The notes below the pieces were generated by a model, which saw only the letters and a list, made by a program, of their open reading frames with translations, did no database searches and was not told the DNA's origin. A DNA stretch of 64,000 nucleotides from Obrimoposthia wandeli (taxonomy: Eukaryota). The position numbers were made by a program, and so were the translations under genes. The first letter of the stretch is position 1. Each line of letters opens with the position of its first letter. The stretch spans positions 62,001 through 126,000 of the forward strand of contig CDROCS010002621.1 in NCBI GenBank assembly GCA_977020255.1, read 5' to 3'. Below, piece after piece: positions 20,155 to 60,391 of the stretch.

Positions 20155-22583
20155 CACCAACAATATATACAAAAAATTAAACTCATAATGACAGACAACC
20201 ATATGTAAAAGTAGAAAACAACAAAACGAATACGACTTAGAATACACAGATTTGATTAACATAATATTCCGTTAACAACAAGCACAGCAATTAAACAACG
20301 ACCTTATTGTATTCCATATGCCTAGAGAGATTAGGGTCAAAGACAAATAAAATGAATATTGGAGAATGGAACTATTAGAAGAATTTTTCAGCATGGACAT
20401 CTCCTGTCGTCTTAATTAAAAGGAAAGATAGTTCGTTAAGATTCTGAGTAGATTATTGAAAACTAAACGAAGTCACACACAAAGACACCTATCCACTTCC
20501 AAGAATCGTTTAAATTCTAATCAAATTAATAACTGCTAAAGTATTCACGACCTTAGATCTACAAAGTGGGTACCGATAAAGAAATAACGGCCTTCTCAAC
20601 AGGATGAGTACTGTACGAATTCAATGTCTTAGTATTTTGATTAACAGGTGTTCCTGTAATATTTCAGAAATATATGAGCCACATTCTAATGGATGCAGAG
20701 CATGTAATGGTATTTGCTGATGACATCCTTATTTTCTCAACAAAAAATTGAAGAACATTTAAAAGATTTAGAAAAGTATTCTTAAGATGGAAAGTAGCAG
20801 GTTTAAAATTAAAACCAAAAAAATTGTGAATGGATAAAAGACAAAGTATATTATTTAGGTCCTGCGTTATCTGCAGAAAAATACAACCAGATCAGAGTAA
20901 TATAGAAAAAGTAAAGAATTTTCCCATTGTTTGGGTTTCTGTGAAACTAGATCCCCTTCCGGAGGCCCCCAACGTAAGTTCTGTAGCAATGGGGATTACA
21001 GATGGACGTGGCCTACATATTCTTACTTTACTGAATTCTTGTCTCAAAATTTGTGTGCAAAGAGTTGTATTTAGGATAACTAAAAAAGGACTCTAAAACT
21101 AATGTGGTGTACTGTAGGGTTATATTATTGAGCCGGTTAGACTGGTCTGAAATCTATTCAAAAAGGGTTCTGGTCAAAACCTAGATAAAATATGTGAAAC
21201 AAAACCGGAGCTAAGCGATGCTAACGATATTCCTTCAATGTATCAGGCCTTAACTATCCTATGTATACACTGGGGTTCGGAACATGTTACATGTTTAGCT
21301 CTCGGCTAGCCTATAGTTTAGTTGGTCTACTTCGTATAAGCATGTAGAAAGTAAACCTTGGTGTTGGTTACAATTATATATTCCAACTAAGATTAGACAA
21401 TAAACTCCTAAATAAAAAGGCGTATACTTAACAGTCTTCAACAGCGACACGTTTCCTAGTTCCCGTTGTTTAGTTCAGTTTCTTTATACAAACTCTTACG
21501 CAATTTATTAATCAAATCAATGTTACACAACATTTAACTCTTTTCAAATAACAAATCAAATCAATGTTACGCAATGTTTCTCACCAATTATCTGTTTTCC
21601 CAATTGGATGGTATGGACTCGTCTCTTATGGGGATTTTGGGTGTTTTTTTTCCAAGGCACTTGCGTTTCCTTCGAACTGTGTCAAACCTTATAATAGATT
21701 TCAGGCGTTTGAATTGTTTCCGTAGCGTAGTTTACTCTCCTTTATCTAGTGACCTGTGTTTATTTTGATTCGCTTCTCCTACGTGACACTCCTCGGTGAT
21801 TTATGTTGTCTTAACTTGAGTCGTATGTCGCTTCGTTGAAATCTATTCTGTTTTCCGATAATGTGAATAATTGCTTATATACTAATCGTTTACGTAGTGA
21901 TGACTGTAGTGATTTCGTCTACCTGACGTTTCACGTGCTTGATTTCCTTACAATCGAGGTCACAAAAAATGCACTATTGGGATTGAGAATTTTGTTTTCT
22001 CTGTTTACTTTTGGGATTAGCTTTCCTCTTTGGTGGCCCTTTTACACATTTTTGAATTTATTTTATACTTGCTTATATGACCTTTAAGATCTCAATTATT
22101 TAACACACATATTTCAATTTCGCTTTTAAAACATTTTTCTATTTTTTAAATTATTTATTTAACCTTCTATTTTAGGTTAGATTTCTACTATAAATAAACG
22201 TGTTTAATTATTATTTGACTAATTTTGTTAATCTAACCCAAAGCCGTAAAAATATACAAGATTTATTAGAAATTTCACACAAATAGTGACACCACTTAAT
22301 AAACTCATTAGTAAAAAAAAAATTTTGAATGGGAAATGGAACAACAAGAATCGTTCAAATACCTAAAACAAAAATTAATTAAAAAAGCTCTTCTCAAATA
22401 TCCAAACTTTAATAATTCATTTTTAGTCATGCTGAGGACAGTGGTTATGCGTTAGGAGCAGTCATAGGACAACAAGACAATATAGAAAAAGATCATGTGA
22501 TAACATACACAAGCAGATGTTTTAAAAACATGAAATAAATTACTCAATAATAGTAAGAGAATGCTTAGCTATGTTTTTTGCTC
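20155..22583 (+). pseudogene. Copy B, 5' remnant: degenerate PR-flank/RT/RNase H of a related Gypsy element
   Basis: Colinear with copy A 29445-29515 and 30232-31340 (e.g. CATGGACATCTCCTGTCGTC, FTTLDLQSGY, GGTTATGCGTTAGGAGCAGT). Many stops and indels; protease region deleted; split by a solo LTR. Confidence 0.85.
20928..22236 (-). mobile_element. Solo LTR related to family C, reverse orientation, inserted in pol of copy B
   Basis: Interrupts the codons for NFPI|PK in copy B pol. The reverse complement of its left end (...ACAGAACTTACGTTGGGGGCCTCCGG...GGATCT...GAAACCCAAACA) resembles the 3' end of the 25912-27971 insert (...ATAGAACTCACGTTGGGGCCCTCCG...GGATCT...GAAACCCCAACA). The right junction and TSD are eroded. 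Confidence 0.65.
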
Positions 22584-23866
22584 AAAGTTTATAATATTAA
22601 AAAATATGTTTTAATTCATTTTTAATAAGATTATACTGTATTTTTTAGAATAAAATTATACTGTATTTTTTTTTAGAATAATTTCTTGGTTGTAATAATT
22701 AAAGTAAAGTAAAAATACTTTGTGGTACAGAGGTTTTGTAAGAAGTTTTCATTATTATTTTTAACTTTGTGGTACATACCGCCAGAGATTTTGCAAGGAG
22801 TTTTTATTGTTTTTAAACCCAACTACATTGTCTCGATCTATTAAAATACAAATTTAGAACAATAAATATACATTTATAAAATAAAAGCAAAAATAATAAA
22901 GATACATAATTCATATTTAAAATTCAATTTTCTATAAAAAATAAAAATTCGAAATTTAGTTGTAAAATATTAGGACTATTTTTGAAATAAAATACAAACA
23001 TATTATTTTATTTGGATTTGGGATTTTCACCAATTTATTTTGATATTTTTACTGATTCGAGTTGGAGGTCAGATACACTGGGATTATCAAATTAACAAAT
23101 TTTCATAGTTTTTGAAGCAATAGTTTTTGATTCAAAATTATCCTGTAATTGATTGAAGATATATTAATAGTTTATCTAAACATAATTTAAAATTAACAAA
23201 TTTTCAATATCAGTTTTTAAAATAAAAATAACGATAGCAGATTTGACTTAAGAATATATATTGATAGGTTAGAAATTTTTTCTATTACTTTGGTTGGAAT
23301 TACAGTTCAAATCACGGTAATCGATTATCATAAGGCCGAGCTGTATTTTGATCACAGAGTAGAGATAATTCCTGACTGTTTTAAAAAAAAAAAAAAAAAT
23401 CAATTTATTTAAATATACATTTTCTTTAATCGTTTTCAATAAAACTAGACAACAATATATAAACACATAAATTAATTTTCGACCCAGTACGCAGGATAAT
23501 AGTGAACAATACACAAAGATTTCAAAATCTAAACGTAGTGCTAATCTTCGCTGGAGACGCATTCAAACTAGGTTAGTAAGAACTAACATAAGTGAAACAC
23601 TACCACAGAGACCTAAATCTCAGATAAATTTTAGAACCAATAACGAATTTTTCCCTGAAACTCCGTTAGTTCACCAACACACGGATCGCTTAATTTCAAC
23701 CGACTCTGAAAACCAAAATCTAACATCAAATTCGGATACAGAAAGTTTATCTTCACCACAAACATCTGACTCGGATAGTTCGTCAGAGATAACAGAAGCA
23801 GTGGCCGTACCAGAACCACCTATTGTACAAATAAACAACGAACAAATAATCAATCAACCTCAAATA

Positions 23867-24968
23867 ATGGCTGAACATAAATTAAATGTTCCATTAGACG
23901 CTTTCAATGACGATAAATCTTCACTACCCGAATTTTTAAATAGATTTGATTCATTTGCCTAGGCATTTGAATGGACTAATGTAGAGAAACTTAGGGTTTT
24001 TCCGGCGTATTTAAAGGGCACTGCCTTAACAATTTATAGAGGATTAAATAATGAACAGAAAGACACATGAGACCATTTAGTTCAGAATTTTAAAATATGA
24101 TTTTAGGAGCACAGTCTGAACAAAATTACCTTAACCAATTTAGGCAACGTGAACAACATTTGGGAGAACCCACAAATATCTTTGCAGTTGAATTACGAAG
24201 ATTAGCCTTAAAATCATTTCCCGGAATTGAGGAAGTCTTAAGAGAACGTTTACTCATACATCAATTTCTATATGGGCTAAACAGTAAAATAAAAAATCAC
24301 CCAGCACTACTAGAAGTAGAAAATTTTCAACAAGCTGTAAATAAGGCTCAACTTGTAGAAACAAGATTAAACATGTTACAACAATCTAAAGTTTCAGCAT
24401 TAACCTTTGAAAAAATACAAAGACCAACAACACCACCAAATTTCAATCAAACTCAAAACTATAACCCAAACACGCAATCTAATTACCAAAACCAACAACA
24501 ATATACACCACCGACAAATAACTTTTATAGAAATCAAACAAACAGAAACTATAAAGACTCACAAATTACACAAAGACAAATTGTGGACTGCAAAATCACA
24601 CAATAGAGAATTGTTATAAAATAACCAACAACAAATTTTGTAGATTTTGTAAAAAAGACAATCATACTATAGAAACTTGCCGAAAATTGTTATACAGACA
24701 AGGTAATAATATAAGACCACAAAATAATAACTTTAATAATCCAAATAATAATTTCAAAAATGCAAATAGTAATTTTAGAAGCCCATATAATAATTTCAAT
24801 AATCAAAATAATCAAGCTAAATATTTTAATACTAATACAAAATTTTGTAAAATTTGTAATATGAAAAATCACAATACTGATGAATGTAGCAAACTAAATA
24901 CTATGATGAACCAATTTGGTAACACAACAATAAAACAACAACAACAACAACAACCACAGATTCAATAA
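23867..24968 (+). pseudogene. gag: gag (capsid plus nucleocapsid with CCHC zinc knuckles), copy A
   Basis: MAEHKLNVPLDAF...FLNRFDSFA*AFEW...LKGTAL...FRQREQHLGE...FAVELRRLALKSFP...LLIHQFLYGL is retrotransposon gag-like. Knuckles CRFCKKDNHTIETC (24639-24680) and CKICNMKNHNTDEC (24846-24887). Stops at 23960 and 24068; frameshifts near 24093 and about 24560. Confidence 0.88.
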
Positions 24969-25346
24969 ACAGTACAATTTAACAATCAAAATCAACAATA
25001 TACCCCAAGAAACCCTATTCGCACTATAGAAAATACAGAAACAACTCCAAACACAGACGAATTAGCATTGTTAAAATTACGACTTAAAGAAAGGGATAAT
25101 CGCTACAGAGAAATACACCAACAATGCCATAACAGTGAACCACAAACAGATAGAACAAACTTACAATCCGAATTTGGAGACATGTTTAGAGATGGTTGTT
25201 TGACATTACAAAAAAATAAATATACAATCACAAAAACAAACCAAACTACTCAAACACAAGAAAAGAAAGTAAAACACAAGAAAAAACGTAAAACACTAAA
25301 AAATCTAAAAACTAAAATTTTTAAAAATACAAATAATCTTAATAAA

Positions 25347-28300
25347 ATGATGAAAAAATTATGGAAAATTATTCAGATAATATTAATAATATGTCTAATT
25401 ATGAACATGATAAAACCAATTAATGCTTTAGAAGCATATGATTGTTCAAAATATAAAATTCAAAATCAATATTCTTTAATGGATTTACAGCAATGTGCAG
25501 ACGCTGACCCAAATGAGGTAAAAATCCAAAATACTAAGTTGTATCAAGTATATCAGGAAACAGATTTCATATATGCAGAAGTTTTCGAATGTAGAGTACA
25601 TGTAGAGACATTTATAACATATTGTGGACAACATAGTCACAATTCAATAGTAAAACCAGCATTAGGAAAAACACCAATAATAGTTGACGCTTTAAATTGT
25701 AAAGATGCTTTCGCAACATGAGAATTGAGAATAGATAGAGAAATTAAAGTCCGAGCAGCGAAAAATAAAATAATTCAACAAATGATATCAGTTCTAAGTA
25801 CGATTAAATCTGATGGAGAATGTACAACAGGAACTTATGTCGTAATGGGAGTTAAGCAAAGTGGTTTAGTAGTTAATAAAAATTTTGAAGTCGAAATAAG
25901 AACTTTCAAAGCGTTAGGATTAGGTTTTGATTAAAATTGAATAAATAATTGTTTTTTATAGTAAAATGAAAATCCTTGAAAGCAAGGTTAAGAATTAAAT
26001 AAATTTTAAAATCAAAATTAAATTATTAAAATTAAAATAAGAATAAATATTAGAAGACCACGAAGGTCGTGTATAATGCGTTGTATATAAAGGTTAAGTT
26101 GACAAAAGCAAAGTGCAAGAAAAAAGAGAATTAATCAACAGAAATTAATTAGCAGAAATTAATTAGCCAACGTCAGAAATCGCCACGTCAGCAAACGTCA
26201 GCAAAAGGTAAGCACATTTTAGTGCGATCAATTAATTTGCCTTGCAGATCCGAAGAAGTCAATCAACGGATCGCCAGGTGGAATTAGACTATATAAGTCT
26301 ACTCAGTTATTAGTTAGACCACGAAAAGCCAAAACAATACACAAGACAACAGATTCCAGTATCAGCAGCGCTTCGCAATCACGGTTAGTATTTATAGTGT
26401 TGGACTGACTAAATTATTGATTTCTAGAATCAGTCGATTAACAATTGTCAAATTCCCACACTTCGCCACGGGTCAGAAAATTACCGGCAATTTCGTTTAA
26501 CCGATCTCAGTCTATATTAACCGATCTCAGTCTATATCAACCAATCTCAGTCTATACCAACCGAGACAGTCTAATCTATAACATCTCGATCTCGGAGAAC
26601 TCTCTGGAATCGGCGAGAATCTAGGAGCCCACGAACCTGAGCGATCTTGGAAAACGGAACGACAGCAGAGATATCGGACACCTCCAGTCTTAGTGTAAGA
26701 CAGATAAATTAAATTGCTAAAAGTTTTATCGCTAAGAAGTTTTGGAAATTGCTAAAATGTTTTATCACTAGAAGTTTTGGAATTATTAAATTGCTAAAAG
26801 TTTTACCACTAAAAGTTTGAAATTGTTGAATTGCTAAAGAGTTTTATTACTGAAAGTTTGAAATTATTAAATTGCTAAAAGTTTTATCATTAGAAGTTTT
26901 GGAATTATTTATCACTAAAAGTTTTATCACTAGAAGTTTGAAATTATTAAATTGCTAAAAGTTTTATCATTAGAAGTTTTGGAATTATTAAATTGATAAA
27001 AGTTTTATCGCTAAGAAGTTTTGGAATTATTAAATTGCTAAAAGTTTTATCACTAAGAATTTTGGAATTATTAAATTGCTAAAAGTTTTATCGCTAAGAA
27101 GTTTTGGAAATTGCTAAAAAGTTTTATCACTAGAAGTTTTGGAATTATTAAATTGCTAAAAGTTTTACCACTAAAAGTTTGAATTATTAGATTGCTAAAA
27201 AGTTTTACCACTAAAAGTTTTGAATTATTGAATCGCTAAAATTGCATTAGAGTATATTATCAGTTTGATTAGTTGTGAAGTTGGATTACACCGATAATTC
27301 GACAAGAAAGTGTATTCCCATTTTAGAGGGGTTACCCTATCTAGAATCAACCCATATTTTTAGAGCAACCAGCTCTATAAATCTATAGCTTTGAACTTAC
27401 CCACGATCTAGAGGAAAGACTCTAAGAATCACCAACCCTAACCTTAAAATCCCATTTGGAATTTAATATTGATCACAGTTTTTAAAGAACATTGAAAGCT
27501 AAATTGGTTCAGTTATATTTCCTATATTTCTAGCAAACAACTGGCCCATCCTTTTAAAGCAACAGCTCTGTAAAACCTATAAACTTAATTTCCGTATTGG
27601 TTGGAGTAAAGACTCTAGCAACCAACTAATCCTATCTAAAAATCGATACGTGGTTCATCCCCACTTGTGTAGAGACTTATAGAAGTCTTAGAAATTTTTA
27701 CTGTAACCTTTTAGAAAATACGTACGTAAACGTATTGTTGTGTTTAATCTAGTGTGTTAAAAATAAACGATTTCCTACATTAGAAAGTATTGTTTTAAAC
27801 CCTTCAGATTAAGAGACATCAAAAGCAAACACCTTCAGATAAGCAATTGAGATAGGCAACCATAACATTAAGTAGGCCACGACCATCGTTAAGTCCTGCT
27901 TCTATAGAACTCACGTTGGGGCCCTCCGCACACAAGAGGATCTATATAAGTCTCATATAGAAACCCCAACAAAAGCAACATTCGACCCTTCCACAAACAG
28001 AATGGTAACAATGCCATTTTGTGAAGCAAACATAGGTCACTGTAACACGGGTTCTTCAATACTTTACTACAAAGTAAAAATGGATCAATGTAAATTAACA
28101 CATTTAAAATCAGAAACTTTTCAAATAATTCAAGGAAAAAGATTTAGAGATGATCCGGAACTAGATCAACAAATTCCAAAGGACATACGCAAAATATATA
28201 GAACTAGAAAAATACGAAAAACACCAACTCCAACTATATTAATGTCTATTGAACAAGGTTCAGGAATGCGATTTATTAAAAAGAAAGAGGAATCCCGATG

Positions 28301-29305
28301 TGGACACTCTGTTTATACAACTAATTATAAAGGAATATATTTATGTAATGAAAAATACATAATGCATAAACGACACCAACTAAATTTGATATTAAAAATT
28401 ATGATTATTTTAACAATAAAATAGATTATTTTTATCACAAAGGACTAATGACAATAGAAGCAATATATAGAGAAACCATAATGAATGATTGTAAATTAAA
28501 TCAAGAAATATTAAAAACAAAATTGGCAATTATTGCTACTAACCCAGAATTAATAACACCATTATTACCATTAGCTGACGGTACTTTTGGAAGAGTAATG
28601 GGAGAAGTGTTATACACTTATCAATGTAAAAAAGTAATAGTTAACATAAGAAATCACCAAAAATGTACAAAAGAATTACCAATTTCTTACAAAAATAATT
28701 CATTATTTGTAGAACCAATCACTAGAATCATACTTTTTAACACATTTAGTATAAAAGAAATAAACTGCTCAAACATAATGGCACCTCATTATCAAATTTC
28801 AAAAGATATTAGGATTTCACTTCCAAGAAGAGATATTGTCGCAGAACCAAAAAAATTACAATTAACCACTCTCAGCAACGACATCAATATACAATCAGAT
28901 AACGAATTAAACACAAAAGGAATTTATATACAGGAAAATATAGATAAGTTAAGAAAAGAAATTTTATTTCCACAAATAAGATCCAGAATTTTAACACAAA
29001 TCATAGAAAGATCAGTACTTGACGGAATTAGCCGTCTCGATTACGACTTATTACTTTCTCCAAATCATTTTATAAAAGCCACTAAAAACACCATGTCAAA
29101 AATATGGGGAAAATTTTTAATTTTTGGACAAGCATTTTCTGGATTAGTTGGAATTTATGCTATATTAATTTGCTTTAAGATTCTTCTAAGTCAAATTTTA
29201 TCAACATATTATATTTATAAAGTTGGAGGATTAACATGGAAATTAATCTTAGGATGTTTCCCATTTTTGGCAAAATTCTTATTTTTAATCATCATCAAAA
29301 CATAG
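25347..29305 (+). pseudogene. env: env-like glycoprotein resembling Chuviridae/Jingchuvirales glycoproteins, split by a solo LTR (25912-27971)
   Basis: Signal-peptide-like MMKKLWKIIQIILIICLIMNMIKPINA, then LEAYDCSKY...SLMDLQQC...EVFECRVHVETFITYCGQHSHNSIV, later NNKIDYFYHKG...MNDCKLNQEILKTKLAIIATNP...YTYQCKKV...ELPISYKN...FVEPITRI, and a C-terminal hydrophobic anchor (29100-29290). This cysteine/motif pattern is the one I recognise from chuvirus-type glycoproteins. Removing the insert restores RTFKATFDPSTNRMV in frame. TGA at 25719, frameshift about 28350-28400. Confidence 0.72.
25912..27971 (+). mobile_element. Solo LTR (family C, about 2.06 kb) inserted in env of copy A
   Basis: Ends CGTTAGG (probably TG mutated to CG) ... 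ACCCCAACA; 4-bp TSD AAAG (25908-25911 and 27972-27975); excision restores the env frame. Internal 20-bp repeats (26499-26570) and about 41-bp repeats (about 26710-27245). No internal coding sequence recognised. Confidence 0.8.
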
Positions 29306-32300
29306 TAAACACATTATCAAATGAAATGCGAGAAACAAATATACAAAAAATTACAAGTACCAAAGAAACAGAAAAAACGGAATCTTCACAATATCCTGAT
29401 TTAGAAAAATATATAGATAAAACAACTATACAAAAACCATCTGCACCAACAATATATACAATAAATCAAAAAGATAACGACAAACGACCATATGTAAAAG
29501 TAGAAATTAACGAATATAAACTTAAAGCTTTAATTGACACAGGATCAAGCGTAACAGTTTTAGACGAATCTTTCTTAAAAACACAACAAAAATTACTTCT
29601 TCTTAAGGAAAATAGTCAAGTCACAGCAGCAAACGGTCAACCCGTAAATATAATAGGAAAATTAGACTGTCTTTTTAAAAAAGGAGATAAATTCATAAAA
29701 ATACCTACAAGAATAATGAAAAATTTTCCTTGCCAAATGATCATAGGAATAGATACATTAAGAAAATTAGGAAATAATTTCCATTTTGATTTTGAAAAAA
29801 ATCAAATAAAATACATTTACAGACCTAACGCCAAAAATGAATACGAGTTAGAAATAAAAGGAGATATCATTCTCCAACCAAGAACAGAAACAATGTTACA
29901 ACTAGAAACTAACATAATCACAGAAAAAGATGTATTATTTGAACCTTATAAATATCAACAAGAAACCTTGAACTACGTTTTGCCAAATATAATTTGTAAA
30001 ATAAAAAACAACACAATACCAATCAGAATCCTAAATGCAAACATTAATGAAATTCATCTCAAGGAAGGAGTACGTCTTGGAAAAATAAGTGTTATTGAAA
30101 ATATTGAATTAATAGATAATGAAAAAATAGAAGATAAATCTAAGATAAATTTTAACGATATCAAATTAAATGATTATGAAAAATCAAAACTTAAAACTTT
30201 AACAGAAAAATATGATGTAATATTTGCTAAAAATGAATACGATTTAGGTCGAACAAATTTGATAAAACATAATCTTCCGTTAACAACAAACACAGCAATA
30301 AAACAACGACCCTACCGAATTCCATATGCCTACAGAGATGAGGCTCAAAGACAAATAAAAGGAATGTTAGAAAATGAAATTGTTAGAAGAAGTTTTTCTG
30401 CATGGACATCACCTGTTGTTTTAGTAAAAAAGAAAGATGGTTCTTTGAGATTTTGCGTAGACTACAGAAAACTAAACGAAGTCACTCACAAAGATACTTA
30501 TCCACTGCCAAGAATTGATGAAATATTAGACAAACTAAAAAATGCAAAAGTATTTACAACTTTAAATTTACAGAGTGGATACTGGCAAATAGAAATTGAG
30601 GAGTCAGATAAATATAAAACAGCTTTCTCAACAGGAGAAGGATTGTATGAATTCAATGTCTTACCATTTGGATTAACCGGAGCTCCAGCAACATTTCAGA
30701 GATGTATGAGCCATATTTTAATGGATGCAGATCACGTAATGGTATATATCGACGACATTCTTATTTTTTCAAAAAATTTTGAAGAACATTTATAAGATTT
30801 AGAAAACGTATTCTTAAGATTACAGGTGGCAGGATTAAAACTAAAACCAAAGAAATGTGAATGGATAAAAGATACAGTAAATTACTTAGGACATGCTGTA
30901 TCAGCAAAAGGAATACAACCAGACGAGAGTAATGTAGAAAAGATTAAAAATTTTCCGATCCCAAAAACAGTAAAAAATATACAGGAATTTTTAGGGCTTG
31001 CAGGATATAATCGAAGATTTATTAGAAATTTCGCACAAATAGCGATACCATTAAATAAACTTATTAAAAAAGATGAAAAATTTGAATGGGAAAAAGAACA
31101 ACAAGAATCTTATGAATATTTAAAACAAAAACTAATCGAAAAACCTATACTTAGATATCCTAATTTTAATAATTCATTTTTAGTTATGACTGACGCCAGT
31201 GGTTATGCGTTAGGAGCAGTTTTAGGACAACAGGAAAATAACGAAAAAGATCATGTGATAGCATATGCGAGCAGAGGTCTTAAAAAACATGAAAAGAATT
31301 ACTCAACGATAGAAAGAGAATGCCTAGCTATTTGCTTTGCAATGGAACATTTTAAACATTACTTATTAGGTCGAAAGGTTTATGTTTACACAGATCAAAG
31401 ACCATTACAATGGCTTTTAAATCATAAGGATACAACATCTAGATTAATGAGATGGGCATTGATTTTACAAAAATATGATATTGAAATAAAATATAGAAAA
31501 GGAAAATCTAACGCTAATGCAGATTGTCTATCACGAATAAGAGAAGAAATAAACGAAATAACTGCAAACGACATCGAATTAAATCTTTTTACAATAATTC
31601 AAGCTAAATATGATGAAAAAGTAATTACTAAACTTCAAAGCAAAGATAATGAAATTCAGCAAATAACTAAATACATTAGCACAAACGAAGTACCAACAGA
31701 TGAAAAATTAAGAAAACATTTAAAAACTCACGAATCACGATACAAATATAGTAATGAAATATTATATTATTTAAATGACAAAAATCTATATTCACTAGTT
31801 ATTCCTAAAGAAATTCAGTGTCAATTACTTCTTCAATATCATAATGGAGCCCTAGGAGGACATTTATCATCAAAAAAGACATATTCACGATTAAATTTAA
31901 AATACTATTGGATTGACATGAAAGAAGATGTAAAAAATTGGTGTAAAACATGTGAAATATGTCTTAAACGGAAAAATACTTTACGTACCACAAAAATTCC
32001 TTTAAAACCAATACCTTATCCATCAGCCCCCATGGAAACTGTTGCCATGGATGTAATGGGACCATTACCTGAAACACCCCGAGGAAATCGATATATAATA
32101 GTATTTTCTGATTATTTTACAAGATGGCCAGAGGCTTTTCCAACACATGATCAAAAGGCTGAAACCATCGCGAAGGTTTTAGTCGAAAAAATTATTTTTA
32201 CTTTCGGTGCACCCCGAAAATTATTAACCGACAAAGGTCCTGAATTTATAAATAATGTATTAGCGTCAATAGCTGAAATTTTTCACATAAAAAGATCAAT

Positions 32301-32858
32301 ACAACTCCATATCACCCTCAAACTGACGGGTTAGTAGAAAGATTTAATAGAACCCTCGAAGATATGATGGCATCATACACAAACAACAACCAAACAGATT
32401 GGGATTTACACATACCTCCATGCCTTTTTGCATATAGAACATCAGTACATGCATCCACAGGAGAAACACCTTTTTATCTTATGTTCCTCAGAGATCCTCA
32501 AATGCCTATTGACCTAACATTACTACAACCAACTACACAATACTTAGAAATACCTGAATATAAAATAGAAATTAGAGAAAGAATAAAACTAGCATTCGAA
32601 AAAGCTAAACTATTTGTAAAAAACATACAAGAAAATTACAAAGAATATTATGATAGAAGAACTAAGCCATTAAATATAAAAAGTGGAAGTAAAGTGATGA
32701 TTCACAATCCACAAATTAATGTAGGATTATCACACAAATTATCAAAACCATACAAAGGACCATATACAGTCATTAGTACCAACGGAACCAACATAACAGC
32801 TAAACTAGATAATGAACCAAAATCAAAAGAAATAAGAGCACATATAAACAGATGTTGA
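29236..32858 (+). pseudogene. pol: pol: aspartic protease, reverse transcriptase, RNase H, integrase (copy A)
   Basis: Protease ALIDTGSSVT. RT: SAWTSPVVLVKKKDGSLRFCVDYRKLN, YPLPRID, FNVLPFGLTGAPATFQ, YIDD. RNase H: TDASGYALGAVL, YSTIERECLAI. Integrase: zinc-binding H..GGH...CKTCEIC, MDVMGP, TDKGPEF, GLVERFNRTL (after a frameshift about 32290), KGPY. In-frame TAA at 30793. Confidence 0.97.
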
Positions 32859-32936
32859 GAAATACCTGAGGAGAATACAAAAGTAAAAAGTCACAAATAT
32901 AACTTAAGATCAACTAATGATAATACAATTCTACAA

Positions 32937-34253
32937 ATGTTGACAATAAAAAACTCACAAAAACAAAATAAAACTATTTTGAGTCATCAAACCATAAATA
33001 CAATAAAAATGTCAATAAAAGAAATTGGTAAAATAATGATGTTATTGATAATATATTTTACAATAAAATATAACCTACTGAAAGTAAACGCAGCAAACAT
33101 AAATGACAATCAATCAATCATACAACAACAAACAAATAAATACGACTCAACAACTCATCTCATAAAAAATTTTTGCTTAATAACAATAATACCTGAAATC
33201 ACATCAATAAAGTTAAAAATTTCTCTTCATACAAACAAAACAGGAAATGTGCAAATCACACAAACAGATAGAAAACAAAATATAATTATTTCAGGAATAA
33301 AATCACAAAAATATACAATACCATTTTTAAGAACAGAAACACAATATAAAATAAGAATTAAGTCGAAATTAAAAAATATAACAATCTATGAAAGAATTAT
33401 AGAAACTCACATATACCTAGCATCAATATTAAAAACAACAGCAAAATATATATCAAAACATAAAATAATGATAAAATGGGAATTTCAACTAAAAATAGAT
33501 GACTTAGATAAAGCCCTCATTAGAATTAGATATAGAGGACATAATGCTAATTTTTGGAAAGACTCAGAAAAACAATTAGAAAATACACAAACTAAAACAA
33601 ATTTAACCATAGAAAATATAAGATATCCGGAGAAAATAATAATGGATAATAGAGAATGCGTAATCACTAATAAACCAATAATGTACAGACAATGGAGTCA
33701 AAAGTTTGAAAGTTATAAAAATCTAACAAAATTAACAATTTTAGGAAATAAGATATCCAAACTATATCAACCTACAATTTTTTGTGGTCGTTGGTCAGCA
33801 GTAAAAATTAAGAAATATGTTAAAGAAACAACCAAAAAACAAATGCTACATACCACAGCATTAACATCAAAGATTTACAGAATTACAAATCAAGTTGAAA
33901 TTACGGAGAAAATAAGAATTAAATTAAAATTAAAAACAACAAAAACAATATCCTATAAATCATTTAATAAAAGTTTAAAAATACACTATGGTAAACAAGA
34001 ACATTCAAGGAATGAAGATAAAAAAGAACTTATAATAATAGTTATAGTAATCGAAATAATTACATTTATAAATCAAATATCATGGAGAATTTTAATTTTG
34101 AAACATACAAAAATGATAGAAACAAAACAACGAAAACACTTTTGTGGCCCCCCAGGCCCTTTTACTATTTATATTATTCCCAAGGATGAGAATTCTTCAG
34201 AATTATCCATAAATACTGTAATAGAAAATAAGAAAAGAAATATAACACAATAA
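32937..34253 (+). CDS. Element-encoded putative type I membrane protein with FN3-like beta-sandwich domains (438 aa)
   Basis: Uninterrupted ORF. Hydrophobic signal-like segment IGKIMMLLIIYFTIKYNLLKVNA; FN3-like motifs YTIPFLRTETQYKIRIKS and IMIKWEF...IRIRYRG...FWK; several N-x-S/T sequons; C-terminal hydrophobic stretch LIIIVIVIEIITFINQISW. The FN3 call is motif-level inference only. Confidence 0.55.
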   Translation: MLTIKNSQKQNKTILSHQTINTIKMSIKEIGKIMMLLIIYFTIKYNLLKVNAANINDNQSIIQQQTNKYDSTTHLIKNFCLITIIPEITSIKLKISLHTNKTGNVQITQTDRKQNIIISGIKSQKYTIPFLRTETQYKIRIKSKLKNITIYERIIETHIYLASILKTTAKYISKHKIMIKWEFQLKIDDLDKALIRIRYRGHNANFWKDSEKQLENTQTKTNLTIENIRYPEKIIMDNRECVITNKPIMYRQWSQKFESYKNLTKLTILGNKISKLYQPTIFCGRWSAVKIKKYVKETTKKQMLHTTALTSKIYRITNQVEITEKIRIKLKLKTTKTISYKSFNKSLKIHYGKQEHSRNEDKKELIIIVIVIEIITFINQISWRILILKHTKMIETKQRKHFCGPPGPFTIYIIPKDENSSELSINTVIENKKRNITQ

Positions 34254-34449
34254 TCAAATTTTTTTTAAAATAAAACCATTTATGTAACAAATAATGTTAG
34301 TACTATTAAGTAAATCTAAATTAGTTAGGAAACAGAATAAAAATTTGATATATGTATATTTTAAAGAGGATTTAATGAAAATAATATTAAAATAAAATCA
34401 CCAGGAAACGCATCCTGAAATTTAATAATGGTTATTTTTAGATATAAAA

Positions 34450-34845
34450 ATGAACAGATTGGCAAAAGTTTGTAAAAAATGCAAAAAATTAGAGAAAAAG
34501 ATTCGAGATGTTTCCAGACAGCATGACGACTACTATATAAAGATCACAACTCAAAATGAATCACTGAAACAGTTAATAAAACAAAGTGTGGAAGAAAAAT
34601 TGAATAATGATTTAACAATTGACGAACTAGAAGGGAGATTGACACATAGTTTTGGCAGAATAGACTATTTAATACAACAAACTTTAAGTCAACGATCAAC
34701 TATAGCCTCATTAAGAAGACAAATGATGACCTATAGCGACATGATAAACTTTTATATGACCATTAATCCTACTATCCCAACTAATACAACACTTGATGAT
34801 GGATATGACTCGGATATGAACATTGGTGAACAAAACTCTGGTTAA
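34450..34845 (+). CDS. Element-encoded small coiled-coil protein (131 aa), function unknown
   Basis: Intact ATG-to-TAA ORF with heptad-like helical composition and N-terminal CKKC. A degenerate homologous sequence lies in copy B at about 38750-38900. Confidence 0.6.
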   Translation: MNRLAKVCKKCKKLEKKIRDVSRQHDDYYIKITTQNESLKQLIKQSVEEKLNNDLTIDELEGRLTHSFGRIDYLIQQTLSQRSTIASLRRQMMTYSDMINFYMTINPTIPTNTTLDDGYDSDMNIGEQNSG

Positions 34846-35013: not shown

Positions 35014-36225
35014 ATGGATAACAATCACCTGGATACGACTCCAGACCAGCTCACTCGGTCAGATCAAACAAAAAGCACAGCAAAAATAGAAAGAGGAAAA
35101 TAGGAAAATATGCCAGAAAGGTGGTATTTAGCAAAATTCCTTTATCAAAAGATGCGTCAGTTTAGCATTGCATACTTTAGAAACAACGGAGGAAGAAAAA
35201 TGTTTTCAAATCAAACATTTCTTCCTAATAAGTTAAAAATTACCACAGAGGAAAGAACAAGCGCACTTATTTTTTCCAATGAGAAAAGACCAACCCATAT
35301 GGCTCTCAGCGAAATATTCCCCGATAATAATTGTGAAAAAATATATATTCACGTGGCACTAGGAGTGGCCCATTTAAAAACCAAATCAGATAAGACCTTA
35401 AACTTTCTGATGATAGGAAATCATACCTACACCTTACAAGCAGCACAATTAGAAAATAAATATAGCATAAAAATAGGAAGAGGACCAAATCTATTATTTA
35501 TAGAAAAAATAAGAAAAGCAGAAGTACCTCAACAAATAGCCCTTTTTGAATTAAAAAACGCACAGAAACCAGCAATTTTGTTCCTCGATTGCGAAATGGT
35601 GATATCAGTGGATAAACAGCCAGTTTTAGCAAGTGTTTCTATTATAAATTACATAGGCAACGTAATTATAGATACACTGTGCATAACTAGAGACAGAGTA
35701 AGAAATTACGTTACTAGAATAACTGGACTGTCAGATAGAAAGTTACAAGGATGTAGAGATGCTGATGAAGTAATTGAGGAAGTAAAAAACATTGTGAATG
35801 GTAACATCATCGTAGGTGTGGGACTAACAAACGATTTAAAAGCTTTACGCCTACAGAAATGGATGTTATTCAACATTGTTGATTTAGGAATATCTAAAAG
35901 CATAAAATCAGAACTAAATCACAATCACCCAAATATTGGACTCGCCAACATGGTACGGAAATACTTAAATGTAGAAACACAAAAAGGAGTCCACACTAGC
36001 ATGGAAGATGCAAATCACACCCGAAAAATTTTCATAATGAAGGAGGAAATGTTGAATAGAGAGTTTGATTTGACCGAGGTGATGAATCCACCATCTAGCG
36101 AGAACAACCCCAGTTCATCGTTCTCACAAATCCGGAGTCCGGTACACAAAACTCCCCGATTTTGTTGGATTAAGGTAGTACTATTATTATTTTTATTCTG
36201 TTTTCATTCTTGTCTAAATTTTTAA
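35014..36225 (+). CDS. Element-encoded REX4/ISG20-like DEDDh 3'-5' exonuclease with an unknown N-terminal domain
   Basis: ExoI LFLDCEMV (D 35587, E 35593), VLASVSIINYIGNVIIDT, NYVTRITGL, ExoII IVGVGLTNDLKAL (D 35833), ExoIII QKGVHTSMEDA (H 35992, D 36007). The ORF track starts at 35110; the upstream in-frame ATG at 35014 is separated by one TAG (35101), and copy B is open across the equivalent segment. Confidence 0.85.
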
Positions 36226-36570
36226 CGATATTTAAACAGACATGATTGTGATTAGTAAAACATTGATCAGTTATAACATACAAACAACACTAGTTAACCA
36301 TAGAAACAAGACAAAATAGTTTTACTAATAATTAAGATAAAAATTATAATTCTGAGGACAGAGACTTTTATGACCCGGAGGATTGTTGGGAAAATATTAT
36401 AGCTATTTATTTTGAAAAAATAAAAATATAAATATATATATAAAAAATCTTAAAAATAAAAAGTAAATAAGAATTAATTAACTAAAGAATTAATTAAGAA
36501 CTTTCCTTAATTAGGGAAAAGTTCTATTTAGAAAATATGCACTTTGGCATTTTAGTCTCAAGAGTGATCA

Positions 36571-36622
36571 ATCTCCGACGGGAAAAAAGCCCGTTTCGCC
36601 CTACCGGGCTCATCAGGGAGAT
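36571..36622 (-). ncRNA. Type I hammerhead ribozyme
   Basis: Minus strand reads AUCUCC-CUGAUGA-GCCC-GGUA-GGGC-GAA-ACGGG-CUUUUUU-CCCGU-C-GGAGAU: complete catalytic core, three perfectly paired stems and a GUC cleavage triplet (cut between 36577 and 36576). Confidence 0.92.
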
Positions 36623-37309
36623 GGCTTGTTATCTCTAACTTCGCGGTGGATTCCGCGAAGCCAGAGATAACAATAATAAAATGCCAGGGAAAAGAGGGAA
36701 AGATTCCCCCTTTCATGTGCCGATGAATATCGTCGACATGTGATGTTGGTGTGCGCAAGTGCACAATTCAACACACACACACACTCACTCAACTTTCACT
36801 CACTCACACTCACAACTCACTCAACTTTCATACTCACTCTCCTTACTCACTCACTCACATTATGTTTGGTGTGTATGTGTGTATAAAACTTTCCCATCTG
36901 CCCAGATACGATGTTTATGGATGGAATTTTCGGATCGGCGTCGGTGTGTTTGGGCTGCACACCGAGTTCCCTCTCTGCCCAGATCCGCTGCCATCGGTGT
37001 ATGTGTGCAGCAGTATTTCTTCTTGCAGTTTCTGATTTGTCTGATCGTTTACCAGTGGAATTGAGGTTGTAGTGCAACTGATTGACTTGTTTTCTATAGT
37101 TTGAAGTGGAGCTTTGATTTTTTAAGATTCACATTCGAACAAGATAGTCTAATTGGATTAACAAACAGAAAAAGCTCTGGAAATTGCAACATCACTGTCA
37201 GCAGTTTGTTTGAATATTTAAGCTGCACACTGCTTACTAAAAGGCCAGTGGAAAAAATTTTATTACTAAATTCTTAAAAATTTGGAATCGAATCTATCGA
37301 ATAAATATA

Positions 37310-37805
37310 TTATAACAATTTGAACAATTTTATTTGCAGCTATAACAATTTGAACAATTTGACCATTTCCGGATATTGATTTGATTTAGGAACAGGACTA
37401 TATTGTTATTCTAAAATATAACAATTTGAACTATTTGATTTGCAGCTATAACAATTTGAACAATTTGACCATTTCCGGATATTGATTTGATTTAGGAACA
37501 GGACTATATTGTTATTCTAAAATATAACAATTTGAACAATTTGATTTGCAGCTATAACAATTTGAACAATTTGACCATTTCCGGATATTGATTTGATTTA
37601 GGAACAGGACTATATTGTTATTCTAAAATATAACAATTTGACTTTCAGCTATAACAATTATAACAATTTGACTTTCAGCTATAACAATTTGAACAATTTG
37701 ATTTGCAGCTATAACAATTTGAACAATTTAATTTGCAGCTATAACAATTTGAACAATGTGATTTGCAACTATAACAATTTGAACAATTTGACCATTTCCG
37801 GATAT
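37310..37805. repeat. Nested tandem repeats (106-bp x3 and about 30-bp units) in the copy A LTR
   Basis: GACCATTTCC recurs at 37361, 37467 and 37573; ATAACAATTTGAACAATTTGATTTGCAGCT units follow. Confidence 0.9.
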
Positions 37806-37871
37806 TGATAAGATTGGGAAAATAAAAAGAATTGATAATCAGAAATTACTTGTTTTTTCATTTAATTAACA

Positions 37872-40650
37872 CATATATGGCATAAGTATTAACAACAGAA
37901 AAACAAAAAACAAAAAATAACATAATGATCAAGTGGAAAATTCAACAAAAAATAGACGACTTAGACAAAGCCATTATTAGAATTATATAAAAGACTTAAT
38001 TCTAATTTTTAGAAAGATACAAAAAAACAATTAGAAAAATTTCAAGCCAAACAAATTTGATCATAAAAAATTTAAGATATTCAGCAAAAAAATCATACAG
38101 AATAGGGAATATGTGATCACTAACAACCCAATAATGTAAAGACAATGAGGAAACAAATTTGAAATTTGTAAAATAATTAACAAAATTAACAATTCTAGGA
38201 ATAAAGATAAATATAACAATTCACGATTTTTTGCGGTAACTGGCTATTAATTGAAGTTAGTGAATACATTAAAGAAACTGCCACAAAACATATACAACAT
38301 ACAATAAGACACACAACTAAAATATATCAAAATACAATTCAATTTAATATCCCAGAATTCAAAATTTTTAAAACAAAATAAACAATATTTTAAAAGTTTT
38401 AATTAAAACGTTGGGGTGTTTTATAGTAAACAAAACTACTCTTACGATGAAGATGGAACAGAACTCATAATAACAATAATAATAATTGAAATATTAATAC
38501 TCGTCATAAAAACATCGTGGAAAATCAGAATTTCAAAACACAAGAAAATTTCAAAACAAACTCCTCGAATTAATTTTATGGGCTCCTAAGACCATTTATA
38601 ACATATATTATACCAAACTCTACAAACTCATCCAATGTATCAATAAACACGTTAATTGAAAACAATAAACAAACACGACAAAAAACCTTTACTAATTCTA
38701 GGTATTTTTATATTAGTAAATGTATCATCATTTTTTTAATAAATTTAAAATATCATTGGGAAAACTCCACGCCTGCAATCAAAGTCATAAACTAAAAAGA
38801 AAAATTCAACACGTAAAACATCAGCAAGATGATTATATTAAAAATATAAACAAAATGACAAACTGAAATAGAATATCAAAGATTGGTGGACGAAAATATT
38901 AATCAAAATATAGAAATCAATAAACATGAAAAGGAAATTAAATCTAATTCCTATACAAGTAAATAAGATAATTTTTATCGTCGAATTGATGCCTAACAAA
39001 CAATATTATTATCTCTACATGCGCAAACCCGACTATTGATAAACATATTTATTTTTCCAAACATGAAATGAAATTTATTTTTCGAAACGATTCGGGAAAT
39101 GTGTCTGAAAATTAGTCTTTGTAACCAAATTAACGTTTTTCATTTGTTATTAAAACCAGCTATCTCATAAAGCGCAAATATTTTTTTATTTCTGACAATG
39201 ATAAATATTCATTGTAATAAACCCCCTAATAACCCCCCACAAACTAACCATTCTTTCATAACTTTTCTTATTACCAAATACATTTTTTTATGAAAATTTA
39301 CATATTTTTTGAAACACCAACAGATGGATATAACCTCCAATCACTTGGATATGACTCCAGACCAAAAAGGGAATACTCGGTCAAATAAAAAACTAAACTC
39401 AAAAACAATTGCAAGAGTGACGCTAGGGTGCATGCCAGAAAAATCAGTTTTAGCAAGATTTCCTTACCAAAAAATGCGCCAGTTTTGTATCGAATTTTTT
39501 AAAGAAACGGTAGAGGCAGAAAATTGTTTGCCATCAAACGCCCATTCACAATAAGCCAAAAATCACCACAGAAGAAAGTATGAGTGCATTGATTTTTGCC
39601 AACGAAGATAGTGATTGTGAAAGTGATTGAAAAAGTGATTGTGAAAAAATATTTATTCACCTGCACGAGGAGTAGCTCATAGAACATATAATACGCTAAT
39701 TTTTTTATGATATGGAATCACACATTCACTTTACTAGCAGCATAGTTAGAAAATTTGTACTACATAAAAATAGCAAAAGATCTAAAGCAATTATTCATCG
39801 ACAAAATAAGGACATCGGAAATACCACAACAGATAACCCTAATGGAATTGAGAGAAAGTCAGAGGTCGGCAATACTGTTCATTGATTCTGAAATGGTTAT
39901 AACAGTGAACAAACAACCTGTATTGACAATTGGGTCTATTATAAATTACACAAGCGAAGTAATGGTAGATACACTATGCATTACCAGGAAAAGGGTAAGA
40001 AACTATGTGATGAGAATAACAGCCTTACGATTAAAAATGTGGATTTTGTTCAACATTGTTGATTTGAAAATATCAACGACCCCAAAAATGAGTTAAATCA
40101 TAGCCACCCAAACATTGTACTTGCAAACATGATACGCCAATACCTAAACATAGAAACTCAAGCAGGAGTTAACACTGCCATGGAAGATGCAACTCATATC
40201 AGATAAAATTTCGGATTAAGGAAAACAATGTCGAGAGAAGAGTTTAATTTGACCGAGGTACTAAACCCTATAATAGACAATACGAACAGACAAAGTTCCT
40301 CGGTTGAGACAGTGACCAAAGGCCTCGAATGCGGCACACAGAAATTTCCAATTGTCCTGATTTAAGGTATTTTACTCTTCTCGTTCTTTCTTGATAAACA
40401 GTTTTATTTCTGAAAAACATTACCTACCCAAACATATAGCAATAACAAACCTTTTTATTTACTCAATAACCTATAGATGCAATACTTTAAATTTTATCTA
40501 AAATAACCAACTATTGACTTTTAACATTAATGCATTTTTCGTTTGCACTAGGTACAGTTAGTCGTAACATTGATGATCAAATCGAATAATTTAAATTTTA
40601 GTACAAAAACGTTGTATTTCTGAAGATAACATTTTTTCTAACCCCGGTAT
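37872..40650 (+). pseudogene. Copy B, 3' remnant: degenerate FN3-like ORF, coiled-coil ORF and DEDDh exonuclease
   Basis: Colinear with copy A 33408-36383, e.g. AAATAGACGACTTAGACAAAGCC vs AAATAGATGACTTAGATAAAGCC; MPEKSVLARFPYQKMRQF vs MPERWYLAKFLYQKMRQF; FIDSEMV; TAMEDA. Confidence 0.85.
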
Positions 40651-41300
40651 TGTTGGGAATATTAAAGATTCCCGTGAAATCAAATATAATAATGGCAGAA
40701 GTGCGTTACGGTAGGGAATATTCGATCATAGATCAGGTGGCCCCTTCTGGGTCGCTTCAATCTGCAATCGAAATAAATTCAGAAAGGATTTGATGCATCC
40801 CTCTTTTTTCACCTGTACAGTACATTCTCCCTGCCAGTCCCCAAGATATCTCATCTCTACCCTGATGTGGCTTCTCACCGTATCTCCTTTATTGCAAGTC
40901 CCAGGATCAACACTTCTCCATGTGAGTTTCCCAAGCAAGGTCGAATGTCTTCTCGTTACCAGTAATGAACAAAATGATAAAAACCTACACAATCCAACTT
41001 ACAATCTTGTCTGAATTATTGTGTGTGCTGAGTTATACAAGATGTATTTGATTAAAAGTGAGCAACATCCGTGTGTGTGTGTTTGATTATTTTGCATGCA
41101 CACTTTTCTGTATTATTCTTGTCTCGTTTTACCCATTTTCCTCTCGTTCTTGGCAGACACAAGTCATAATGTTGCCACCACCACATTGAGTTGTTGTCCC
41201 ACTTTCTGAGTTTTATCCTGTTGACTATGTGTTTGAATGTCACTATCTTTGATTGCATGTTGAAAAATATTGTGTGGTAAATAATCCTCCCTTATAAACT
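40651..41300 (+). repeat. Putative 3' LTR of copy B (right end not resolved)
   Basis: TGTTGGGAATATT starts directly after TTCTGAAGATAACATTTTTTCTAACCCCGGTAT, the counterpart of the sequence preceding copy A's LTR. The end coordinate is a guess. Confidence 0.45.
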
Positions 41301-42146
41301 GAAGTTTTTCTGCAAGAAATCCCTCGCATATTTACAACAAATAAATAATCAGACACAAATTTCTCAATCTTGATCTTTTAATTTTTTAGTAGAACAACAG
41401 TTTTGGTTTTGTAACAATTTCAGTTTGGAATTTTCGATAATTATAATGTTGGTATTTGACAAAAAAATCTGATTTAGTCGCAAGGCATTGATTATTACTT
41501 TTGTAATTTATATTACAATATAAACTAATTTTGACTTTTAAGTTTATAAAATATTGCTCAGCACAAATAGCTAAACCAAAATTTCCCATATTTTCCGTTT
41601 ATCCAATCAATTTTTATTTATTTACGACTTTTATTTATTATTGAATAAAAATCGGAAAACTTTCATGATTTTACATTATGTTAACATTAAAAAAATTTAC
41701 AGATACTTTAATTGTTCAATGCATTTTACATTATTAACATTTAAAGAACATTATCTATACATTATTTAATTTTTTATAAATTATAAAAACTTTAGAAATC
41801 AATTTAACAAACTTACTATTTCTCAAATTATGACATGAAAACAATAAAAGCAATATAGTTAATTATTAATAAAATACGATATTTCTTTGTAATTTTATGT
41901 GCGAGCGAACATTTTACACTTTTACATCTGCTCATATTGTTTTAATATCATAAGGTGTAAATAACCATCAATTCAAATTTTCAAATATAATTTTTATAAA
42001 AATTTTATTTAATCTTTTGAAAGATAGTCATTACATATTTTCAATAAATTAACTTTCTTTACATTTTTTTCTTAATTAAACTAATAATTTCTGTAAATTT
42101 TTTCTATTGAATTACATTCTTTTATTTTTTAGTTTTAGGGAATGAA

Positions 42147-60100: not shown

Positions 60101-60391
60101 AATATTTATGGTATTCGATCTTACAGTCTGAATTGGACTAATCATTAAGATATTTATTATTACATAACGGGTGCCGAGTTAATATAAGGAGGCAAAATGA
60201 GTTGCCTTTTGAAAGATGTTGGAAAACACTGTCATAAGCTGTTCTGGAAATTTTTGCGCAGTGGGCCCTTATCGGACGTTGCTACAAGACCAATTAGCAT
60301 GAACATCGAGTCCAGCATCCACATCCAGGAGTTCTATCGACCCGGCGAGCCTGGCTACCCCCCACCGGCCTACAACGAAGTGTCAGTTTAG
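42147..60391 (+). CDS. ADAM10: Disintegrin and metalloproteinase domain-containing protein 10 (kuzbanian)
   Basis: Ten coding exons with consistent phases: 42147-42718, 44423-44666, 45951-46301, 49097-49327, 51106-51285, 52198-52365 (GC donor), 53298-53477, 55346-55567, 59097-59536, 60262-60391; 2718 nt, about 905 aa. Domains in order: signal peptide, prodomain with cysteine switch (TSGCG), furin site RQKR, metalloprotease ([31 protein letters not shown], zinc motif [12 protein letters not shown]), disintegrin ([15 protein letters not shown]), Cys-rich region ([11 protein letters not shown]), TM ([20 protein letters not shown]) and a Pro-rich tail. Confidence 0.95.
45150..45700 (-). mobile_element. 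Tc1-like transposase remnant
   Basis: Minus ORF 45439-45696 contains [23 protein letters not shown], resembling the FQQDGA...FP.RWI segment of DD34E transposases. Confidence 0.4.
46740..47340 (+). mobile_element. mariner-like transposase remnant
   Basis: [32 protein letters not shown] resembles the mariner KVM.xVFWD..G...E....G.TIN...Y segment; frame-broken. Confidence 0.55.
47690..48620 (-). mobile_element. DNA transposon remnant (hATm-like), 5' part
   Basis: Minus ORFs carry QLPIDV...KSTL and LFDFSSCKC...KIP...[18 protein letters not shown], a motif set common in invertebrate cut-and-paste transposases; putative terminus TAGGATTGGCCGAAAACC at 48620. Superfamily assignment is tentative. 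Confidence 0.5.
49820..50500 (-). mobile_element. Second fragment of the same LINE family, in an ADAM10 intron
   Basis: Shares TTTCACTGACATGCATGAAACTT and ATAATCGATTGACGAAGTATAAAT with 4440-4700. Minus strand [15 protein letters not shown] resembles the LINE ORF2 C-terminal motif. Confidence 0.55.
54470..54995. repeat. 33-bp minisatellite (about 14 copies) in an ADAM10 intron
   Basis: Unit about GATTATTGGAGGATATGCGATTATTTGAAGTTGGGT; the 33-bp periodicity explains the repetitive ORFs on both strands. Confidence 0.9.

Follow-up and report, generated by a model that had tools for sequence, protein, structure and literature searches.

A type I hammerhead ribozyme on the antisense strand of the LTRs of a Burro-like Ty3/gypsy retrotransposon in the flatworm Obrimoposthia wandeli

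The window analyzed here, i.e. the whole 64,000-nt stretch of contig CDROCS010002621.1 of Obrimoposthia wandeli, contains one copy of a repeat which, judged by its domains, is a Burro-like Ty3/gypsy LTR retrotransposon of 14-15.5 kb (Table 1). The domains of the pol region follow the Ty3/gypsy order (PR-RT-RH-IN), the region is split into three stop-to-stop pieces, and its database homologues are gypsy pol proteins (best identity 51%). Stops, frameshifts and an insertion of 2 kb disrupt this copy, which also lacks the 5′ LTR. The insertion (2.06 kb, positions 25913-27971) interrupts the fusion glycoprotein gene and is absent from four other copies of the element; it includes 40-41-nt tandem repeats (26700-27270) and no hammerhead. 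The gag region had no Pfam match, and neither of the two ORFs that follow pol matched a Pfam family above the cut-off. The motif residues of the exonuclease (D, E, D, H, D) are visible in the last ORF, for which a database word search returned no homologue; its look-alikes in the atlas (RNase_T/ISG20/REX4, at 0.88) are a lead only. The purine tract GGAGGAT precedes 24 of the 55 LTR starts counted.

Table 1. Coordinates of the retrotransposon copy, its ribozyme and a neighboring LTR (window positions).
Feature	Position	Strand	Remarks
5′ leader	22581..23470	plus	similarity to other copies begins at 22581
gag region, broken	23471..24968	plus	two CX2CX4HX4C knuckles, 24639-24680 and 24846-24887
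Fusion glycoprotein gene	24969..29305	plus	PF24664 (Monjiviricetes_fusion), E 2.8e-18 and 4.7e-56; between gag and pol
pol (PR, RT, RNase H, integrase)	29221..32858	plus	PF13975, PF00078, PF17917, PF17921, PF00665
Two ORFs, 464 aa and 138 aa (stop to stop)	32859..34845	plus	no assigned function
DEDDh 3′-5′ exonuclease ORF	35104..36225	plus	PF00929, E 8.7e-8; last ORF before the LTR
Putative PPT (purine tract GGAGGAT)	36377..36383	plus	directly before the LTR
3′ LTR (TGTTGG...TTAACA)	36384..37871	plus	first ~500 nt shared; remainder variable between subfamilies, with tandem repeats
Inferred U3	36384..36905	plus	TATAAA at 36882; 29/59 LTR matches (loci not de-duplicated) end at 36880-36919
Type I hammerhead ribozyme	36571..36622	minus	stems I (6 bp), II (4 bp) and III (5 bp); GUC site
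GCC adjoining stem I	36623..36625	minus	candidate 3-bp pseudoknot with loop II (36605-36602)
21-bp hairpin	36626..36673	minus	adjoins the ribozyme on its 5′ side; two of its minus-strand pairs are G.U
Older related LTR	40651..41340	plus	right end approximate; hammerhead lost by deletion

The element is surrounded by an older, decayed relative (pol, ORF, exonuclease and LTR at 20155-22581 and 37870-41340), whose LTR ends approximately 0.8 kb before the first ADAM10 exon found. This host gene occupies approximately positions 42150-60400 (42147-60382) of the plus strand and has at least ten exons; one exon is 86% identical to ADAM10 of Schmidtea mediterranea and 74-85% identical to that of parasitic flatworms, the other matches listed for the same exon reaching at most 68%, a pattern that points to a flatworm host, probably a planarian. 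The window also includes an 18/36-nt minisatellite, open frames being present on either strand (54409-55056), and a MITE-like element with long inverted arms (7435-7841).

The minus strand of the 3′ LTR can be folded into a complete hammerhead. Reading along this strand, (i) the 5′ strand of stem I (AUCUCC) occupies positions 36622-36617, (ii) the core CUGAUGA follows at 36616-36610, (iii) stem II (GCCC/GGGC, with loop GGUA) spans 36609-36598, (iv) GAA lies at 36597-36595, (v) stem III (ACGGG/CCCGU, 5 bp, closed by a 7-nt loop) covers 36594-36578, and (vi) C17 (36577) is followed by the 3′ strand of stem I (GGAGAU, 36576-36571). The core CUGANGA, the GAAA and the NUH triplet are all present, stems II and III are closed and stem I is open, as in type I hammerheads. 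The minimum free energy fold of the 52-mer is the hammerhead itself, the Rfam model RF00163 aligns over its whole length (positions 1-45 of 45; 32.5 bits, E 2.9e-5), and the full type I descriptor found this single match in the window as against none in 100 dinucleotide-shuffled windows (both strands). Taken together, these results confirm, at the level of sequence and predicted structure, that this segment is a canonical type I hammerhead; the core, stems and GUC site of the original prediction are thereby borne out, and the exact minus-strand coordinates place the predicted cut where it had been proposed (36577|36576).

Other measures are less striking. The core words by themselves occurred in the window at chance level (2 matches, 1.55 expected), and the folding energy of the 52-mer was unremarkable (z -1.33). 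The RF00163 score lies below the gathering score of the family (34), which is why the Rfam scan of the 64-kb window at the gathering threshold returned no match. Loop GGUA is a minority variant, since position 36603 is C in 57/63 and U in 5/63 copies of the family.

The ribozyme lies 187-238 nt inside the LTR, with the cut 193 nt from the LTR edge and approximately 300 nt before the TATA-like word at 36882. Its location in the U3, putative in the original prediction, is now supported by this word and by the point at which the LTR subfamilies diverge, and is the most likely one. Up to ~500 nt the subfamilies agree, and the rest is swapped near 36882-36919, the remainders containing different tandem repeats; a swap near the TATA-like word is as expected of recombination at the U3/R boundary.

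The 1.35-Gb genome was searched for further copies. The hammerheads fall into five lineages (A-E), that of the window being A. Five regions with two hits were examined for lineage A, four of which proved to be two-LTR elements and the fifth of which was rearranged; two further two-LTR elements belong to lineage B. Of the 12 hammerheads possible in these six copies the descriptor detected 10, all of them antisense to pol. Together with the pol domains of the window copy, these results uphold the earlier claim that the hammerhead resides in a gypsy LTR, antisense to gag-pol. The two-LTR elements measure 14.3-15.5 kb and have the paired LTRs that the window copy, lacking its 5′ LTR, cannot show; TG...CA ends, a putative PPT and, in some of the copies, a PBS-like sequence and a 4-bp target duplication complete the features of a Ty3/gypsy element. 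The PBS-like sequence TGGTGAGC follows the 5′ LTR in all three copies in which the pattern located a PBS (6 tried), and target duplications were seen in two of these three (CCAT and AATG), the third being flanked by an uninformative TA repeat. The LTRs of a pair are 93-99.6% identical, which indicates that the clade has been active recently.

The hammerhead region was present in all 63 distinct copies of the window LTR family that were examined, and the other lineages carry versions of their own in the same place; the possibility that some LTR copies lack the motif, which would then be a separate small insertion, thus finds no support. An exact pattern for lineages A-C had 5,262 matches in the genome as against 0 for its reversed control. 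A second pattern, which excluded the stem II of A-C, gave up to 572 matches, some places being counted repeatedly, as against 11 for the control. Among 25 distinct loci drawn from the latter set, 15 matched the pattern for the LTR terminus motif at a distance of 50-190 nt past position 1540, several more have a near variant of it by eye, and two look like chance matches; 24 of the 25 contain a single hammerhead core. Hammerheads in tandem arrays (spaced by 1.3-2 kb) were considered as retrozymes, which was ruled out: the arrays represent a solo LTR amplified within a satellite. This solo LTR, of lineage B, lies in a ~327-nt satellite (duplication CTTG; five loci), each unit with a hammerhead.

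The preserved pairing in an otherwise decayed copy had been taken as a sign of selection or of a recent origin. The second explanation stands, as the LTR is 95-98% identical to those of many copies, and selection cannot be read from this copy. Since conservation within a lineage reflects its youth, the evidence for selection comes from the comparison between lineages. Copies were assigned to five real exemplars by ungapped distance (at most 10 mismatches, pairing not required), a procedure that either loses copies with indels or places them out of register. An intact core was seen in 57/66 copies of A, 31/32 of B, 24/28 of C, 20/20 of D and 28/36 of E (160/182 in total), fractions that are biased upwards because the copies were chosen by similarity. 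The covariation that had been proposed as a check was found: when the commonest pair of each lineage is compared, 7 of the 15 stem pairs (I.2, I.3, I.5, I.6, II.2, II.4 and III.5) are changed on both sides, the changes representing few independent events since the lineages are related. The position beyond stem I pairs in only 4/182 copies. Read on the ribozyme strand, the 75 lineage-level pair positions include five G.U and no A.C pairs, which fits an RNA of the antisense strand.

This conservation contrasts with the divergence of the LTRs that carry the motif. In comparisons of 630-nt segments, the only part in which lineage A could be aligned with B, C, D or E was a stretch of 26-60 nt at the ribozyme; 140-210 nt are common to B, C and D, and E had no match to these three. 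The motif lies opposite an exonuclease ORF in all eight further loci with an adjacent ORF (4/60, 2/24 and 2/22 of those sampled), and the exonuclease ORFs of further loci are 35-53% identical to that of the window. The kept core, the covariation of 7/15 pairs, the polarity of the G.U pairs and the divergence of the LTRs together point to selection for cleavage of antisense RNA, and we consider it very probable that the hammerhead works, that it is built into the U3 and that it is kept by selection for this activity. The pol regions of A and B are 86-95% identical, as against 35-53% for the exonucleases, which means that the 3′ module is either older or faster-changing. The downstream ORFs of A and B are 35-56% identical and their LTRs are unalignable; this pattern suggests that the two lineages exchanged 3′ modules.

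RF00163 at E 0.05 revealed no hammerhead in eight loci of other lineages. Outside the genome the lineage pattern was found in two metagenome stretches and one viral stretch (the same contig as one of the former), all GC-rich, none of them type I by the descriptor and none near a matching protein. In four loci of a sixth, older lineage the hammerhead is decayed and stem III is a different one. The older LTR of the window belongs to this lineage, whose members keep decayed hammerheads and the hairpin; no other ribozyme was found in this LTR.

The sequences flanking the ribozyme are less uniform. The GCC that adjoins stem I and the GGC of loop II are kept in lineages A-D, despite otherwise differing flanks; in E only 2/3 positions of this candidate pseudoknot pair, and no compensatory change was observed among A-E. 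Pseudoknots of this kind are a common tertiary contact of hammerheads (PMC3088659). The hairpin directly 5′ of the ribozyme is far more stable than shuffled sequences in the window copy (z -10.05 on the minus strand and -6.62 on the plus strand). Among the lineages it is significant in A and E only, where it is formed by different sequences (z -8.6 and -6.1), and the ribozyme strand gives the better fold in 57/66 and 25/36 copies, respectively; in B, C and D it is not above chance (z -1.3, +0.5 and -1.7), which rules out a hairpin before the ribozyme in every lineage. A variant at position 36637, present in approximately a third of the contig depth (one sample) and in 4/63 copies, turns a G.U pair of the hairpin into G-C. 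An insulating hairpin 3′ of the ribozyme was also considered and rejected, as it was not above shuffles (z +0.2 to -1.4).

Nearest-neighbor folding predicts that these flanks matter. The lowest stem probability of the window copy was 0.65-0.75 with 6 nt of 5′ flank and 0.07-0.39 with 84 nt; native flanks disfavor the active fold in lineages A-D, which speaks against efficient cleavage, and only E folds well (0.71-0.99). In C and D the probability of the active fold falls to 0.00 once 18 nt of 3′ flank are present, due to a downstream copy of the 5′ strand of stem I. This 3′ decoy (CCUCC in B-D, GCCGC in E) pairs over 4-6 bp as compared with approximately 4 in shuffled sequences, which is no more than suggestive. 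Since the model leaves out tertiary contacts and the order of folding, low values may mean a timed, a regulated or a weak ribozyme. In lineages B-E the word TGTGGGCA / CGTGGGCA is conserved at a distance of 25-45 nt on the 3′ side of the ribozyme, where it directly follows a segment that looks like stem I and the start of the core repeated; it is possibly a protein-binding site or an old duplication.

The closest known arrangements each share some of these features. Plant LTR retrozymes, as described by Cervera, Urbina and de la Pena (2016, PMC4918200), likewise have one hammerhead per LTR, a PBS, a PPT, 4-bp target duplications and Ty3/gypsy-type ends; in contrast to the protein-coding flatworm element of 14-15.5 kb they are non-coding and 1-1.5 kb long, and their hammerheads are of type III, lie on the transcribed strand and yield abundant circles, whereas those described here are of type I and antisense. 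The animal non-LTR retrozymes (PMC7229834; bioRxiv 10.64898/2026.07.22.740005) resemble the present motif in being canonical type I hammerheads with thousands of copies in invertebrates; however, they form 150-450-nt tandem repeats without LTR, PBS or PPT, whereas each true LTR of the flatworm element contains a single motif. Autonomous retroelements with type I hammerheads in their terminal repeats are also known among the Penelope-like elements and Terminons, which are described as having minimal hammerheads without helix III or tertiary contacts, pseudo-LTRs and a different class of RT (PMC7761336; PMC6431247). The flatworm element differs from them in its full stem III (5-7 bp) and its gypsy pol (PR-RT-RH-IN).

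As regards the coding region, the element resembles the planarian gypsy element Burro/GYPSM1, which, according to a review (PMC6431247), has a flatworm host, a CCHC gag, thousands of copies and a mononegavirus-like fusion glycoprotein between gag and pol. Burro is described there as exceeding 30 kb and as having apoptosis and ubiquitin domains, whereas the present element is about half that size; BIR, BCL2 and MATH domains had no Pfam match in the window element, and its 3′-end exonuclease ORF also sets it apart from Burro as described. It looks like a compact relative of Burro, for which the review mentions no LTR ribozyme (PMC6431247). The Vesta and Juno elements of bdelloid rotifers (PMC5408684) are LTR elements that also have a DEDD-family exonuclease ORF downstream of pol; theirs is a DEDDy and that of the flatworm element a DEDDh enzyme, and the word hammerhead is absent from the main text on these elements. 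The full-text searches of the literature led to papers on retrozymes and Penelope elements and to reviews; a hammerhead located in the LTR of an autonomous gypsy element, or on the antisense strand of such an LTR, was not among their results, although the supplements of surveys might list such motifs without context. Ribozymes in fungal or plant Ty3 LTRs that act on sense RNA have reportedly been noted; if such a report exists, the presence of a ribozyme in an autonomous LTR element would be less new, and what stays new would be its antisense orientation, its type I form and the animal host.

What could an antisense cut do for the element? In the mechanism we propose, a polymerase would read the LTR backwards, either from a divergent promoter activity of the LTR itself or by host read-through (e.g. 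of a piRNA precursor). The antisense transcript would form the hairpin first and then the ribozyme, which would cleave the transcript at a point 193 nt short of the LTR edge, while transcription proceeds or soon afterwards. The cap would stay on a piece covering LTR sequence only, and at the 3′ LTR the RNA antisense to the exonuclease, pol, fusion gene and gag would be left with an uncapped 5′-OH end. Uncapped 5′-OH RNA is a poor substrate for cap-dependent export and, as PIWI loading needs a 5′ phosphate, for the piRNA machinery as well. In this way the element would limit antisense small RNAs directed against its own coding region, and the sense genomic RNA would never be cut. The motif is found in both LTRs because reverse transcription places a copy of the U3 at either end of the element. 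The two complete copies contain no antisense ORF of at least 150 aa; there is thus no obvious antisense mRNA for the cut to serve.

That the cut uncaps antisense RNA before the coding region, blunting small-RNA silencing, is a reading we favor tentatively, giving it slightly less than an even chance. The wider proposal, that the antisense U3 hammerhead is an RNA-encoded counter-defense to the piRNA trap, cutting piRNA-precursor or read-through transcripts that enter from the 3′ LTR and leaving them unable to feed the production of piRNAs against the coding region, is possible and rather doubtful. In a study of human cells, cleavage by a ribozyme left a stable 5′-OH downstream product and did not halt transcription (PMC6938672). 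A product of such stability implies that the cut would neither remove the antisense RNA nor stop the polymerase, and double-stranded RNA could still form after it. The same observations argue against the ribozyme as an XRN2 terminator (PMC6938672); a second paper on this question makes no mention of ribozymes, and no literature on kinase-assisted decay was found. Escape from silencing of the whole family is, moreover, partly a shared benefit, which would make selection on single copies weak.

The cleavage product could itself be the purpose. Type I cleavage leaves nearly the whole motif on the 5′ product, so that the ribozyme might serve to trim, at its 3′ end, a short structured antisense RNA with a role of its own: a capped 5′ product of approximately 100-300 nt, which would terminate in the hairpin and the hammerhead and might, to give two examples, lure away dsRNA-binding silencing factors as a decoy or regulate the LTR promoter. 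The very stable hairpin directly 5′ of the ribozyme in A and E, better formed on the ribozyme strand and common to the older lineage too, is what such an RNA would contain; however, this hairpin is at chance level in B, C and D and may merely insulate the folding of the ribozyme, and no antisense promoter was identified. Furthermore, the 5′ products of ribozymes were degraded from the 3′ end in human cells (PMC6938672). We regard such an RNA as unlikely, and rank it next after the preferred reading.

Type I hammerheads are common in animal repeats, which makes capture from one of them a likely origin of the motif (PMC7761336 and PMC7229834), and it might have stayed as an inert passenger from a Penelope-like element or a non-LTR retrozyme, or as a structure of the DNA or sense RNA conserved without catalysis. 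The U3 lies in the 3′ end of the sense RNA, where the stems form too (-20.9 kcal/mol), and the poor folding predicted in the native context would not trouble a passenger. On the other hand, loop III, the stem sequences and the flanks turn over whereas the unpaired nucleotides of the catalytic core do not, the G.U pairs fit the antisense strand only, and the motif is canonical, unlike the minimal hammerheads of Penelope elements, with a single copy in each LTR instead of 150-450-nt tandem repeats, all of which makes this explanation improbable.

The two LTRs carry the motif in the same orientation, an arrangement that could release a unit-length antisense copy (13-14 kb) for circularization, or short retrozyme-like derivatives; in retrozymes the 5′-OH and cyclic-phosphate ends serve this purpose (PMC4918200, PMC7229834). 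However, the strand in question is opposite to that of gag-pol and the PBS, a circle would thus serve neither as mRNA nor as a template, it is accompanied by no antisense ORF and no RdRp, and the tandem arrays are those of the satellite-borne solo LTR, so that we consider circles a little more improbable still. Finally, the 5′ product might anneal to the genomic U3, its 3′ end pointing towards the LTR edge, and act in reverse transcription as a primer, as an aid to strand transfer or in RNA-DNA ligation, type I hammerheads being able to ligate to 5′-OH nucleic acid (Perreault et al., PMC3088659), but the conventional PBS-like TGGTGAGC, the normal LTR ends, the 4-bp target duplications in two copies and a cyclic-phosphate end that cannot prime without repair make this highly improbable.

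In this flatworm a canonical hammerhead has been kept through deep divergence of the LTRs of a protein-coding gypsy element with an env-like gene, on a strand that the element does not use for replication. Self-cleaving ribozymes of retroelements (R2, Penelope, retrozymes) are described as shaping the element's own sense RNA. An antisense hammerhead implies an unrecognized antisense step in the life cycle of an LTR element. As the curated Rfam threshold misses this ribozyme, similar cases could hide in other invertebrate genomes. If the counter-defense proposal is true, the ribozyme may work together with the DEDDh exonuclease of the element, and the host genome would contain several thousand orientation-specific cut sites. 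Since the motif is present in more than 5,000 copies, host transcripts that run through an LTR in the reverse direction may be cut as well, which may bias the sites at which insertions are tolerated.
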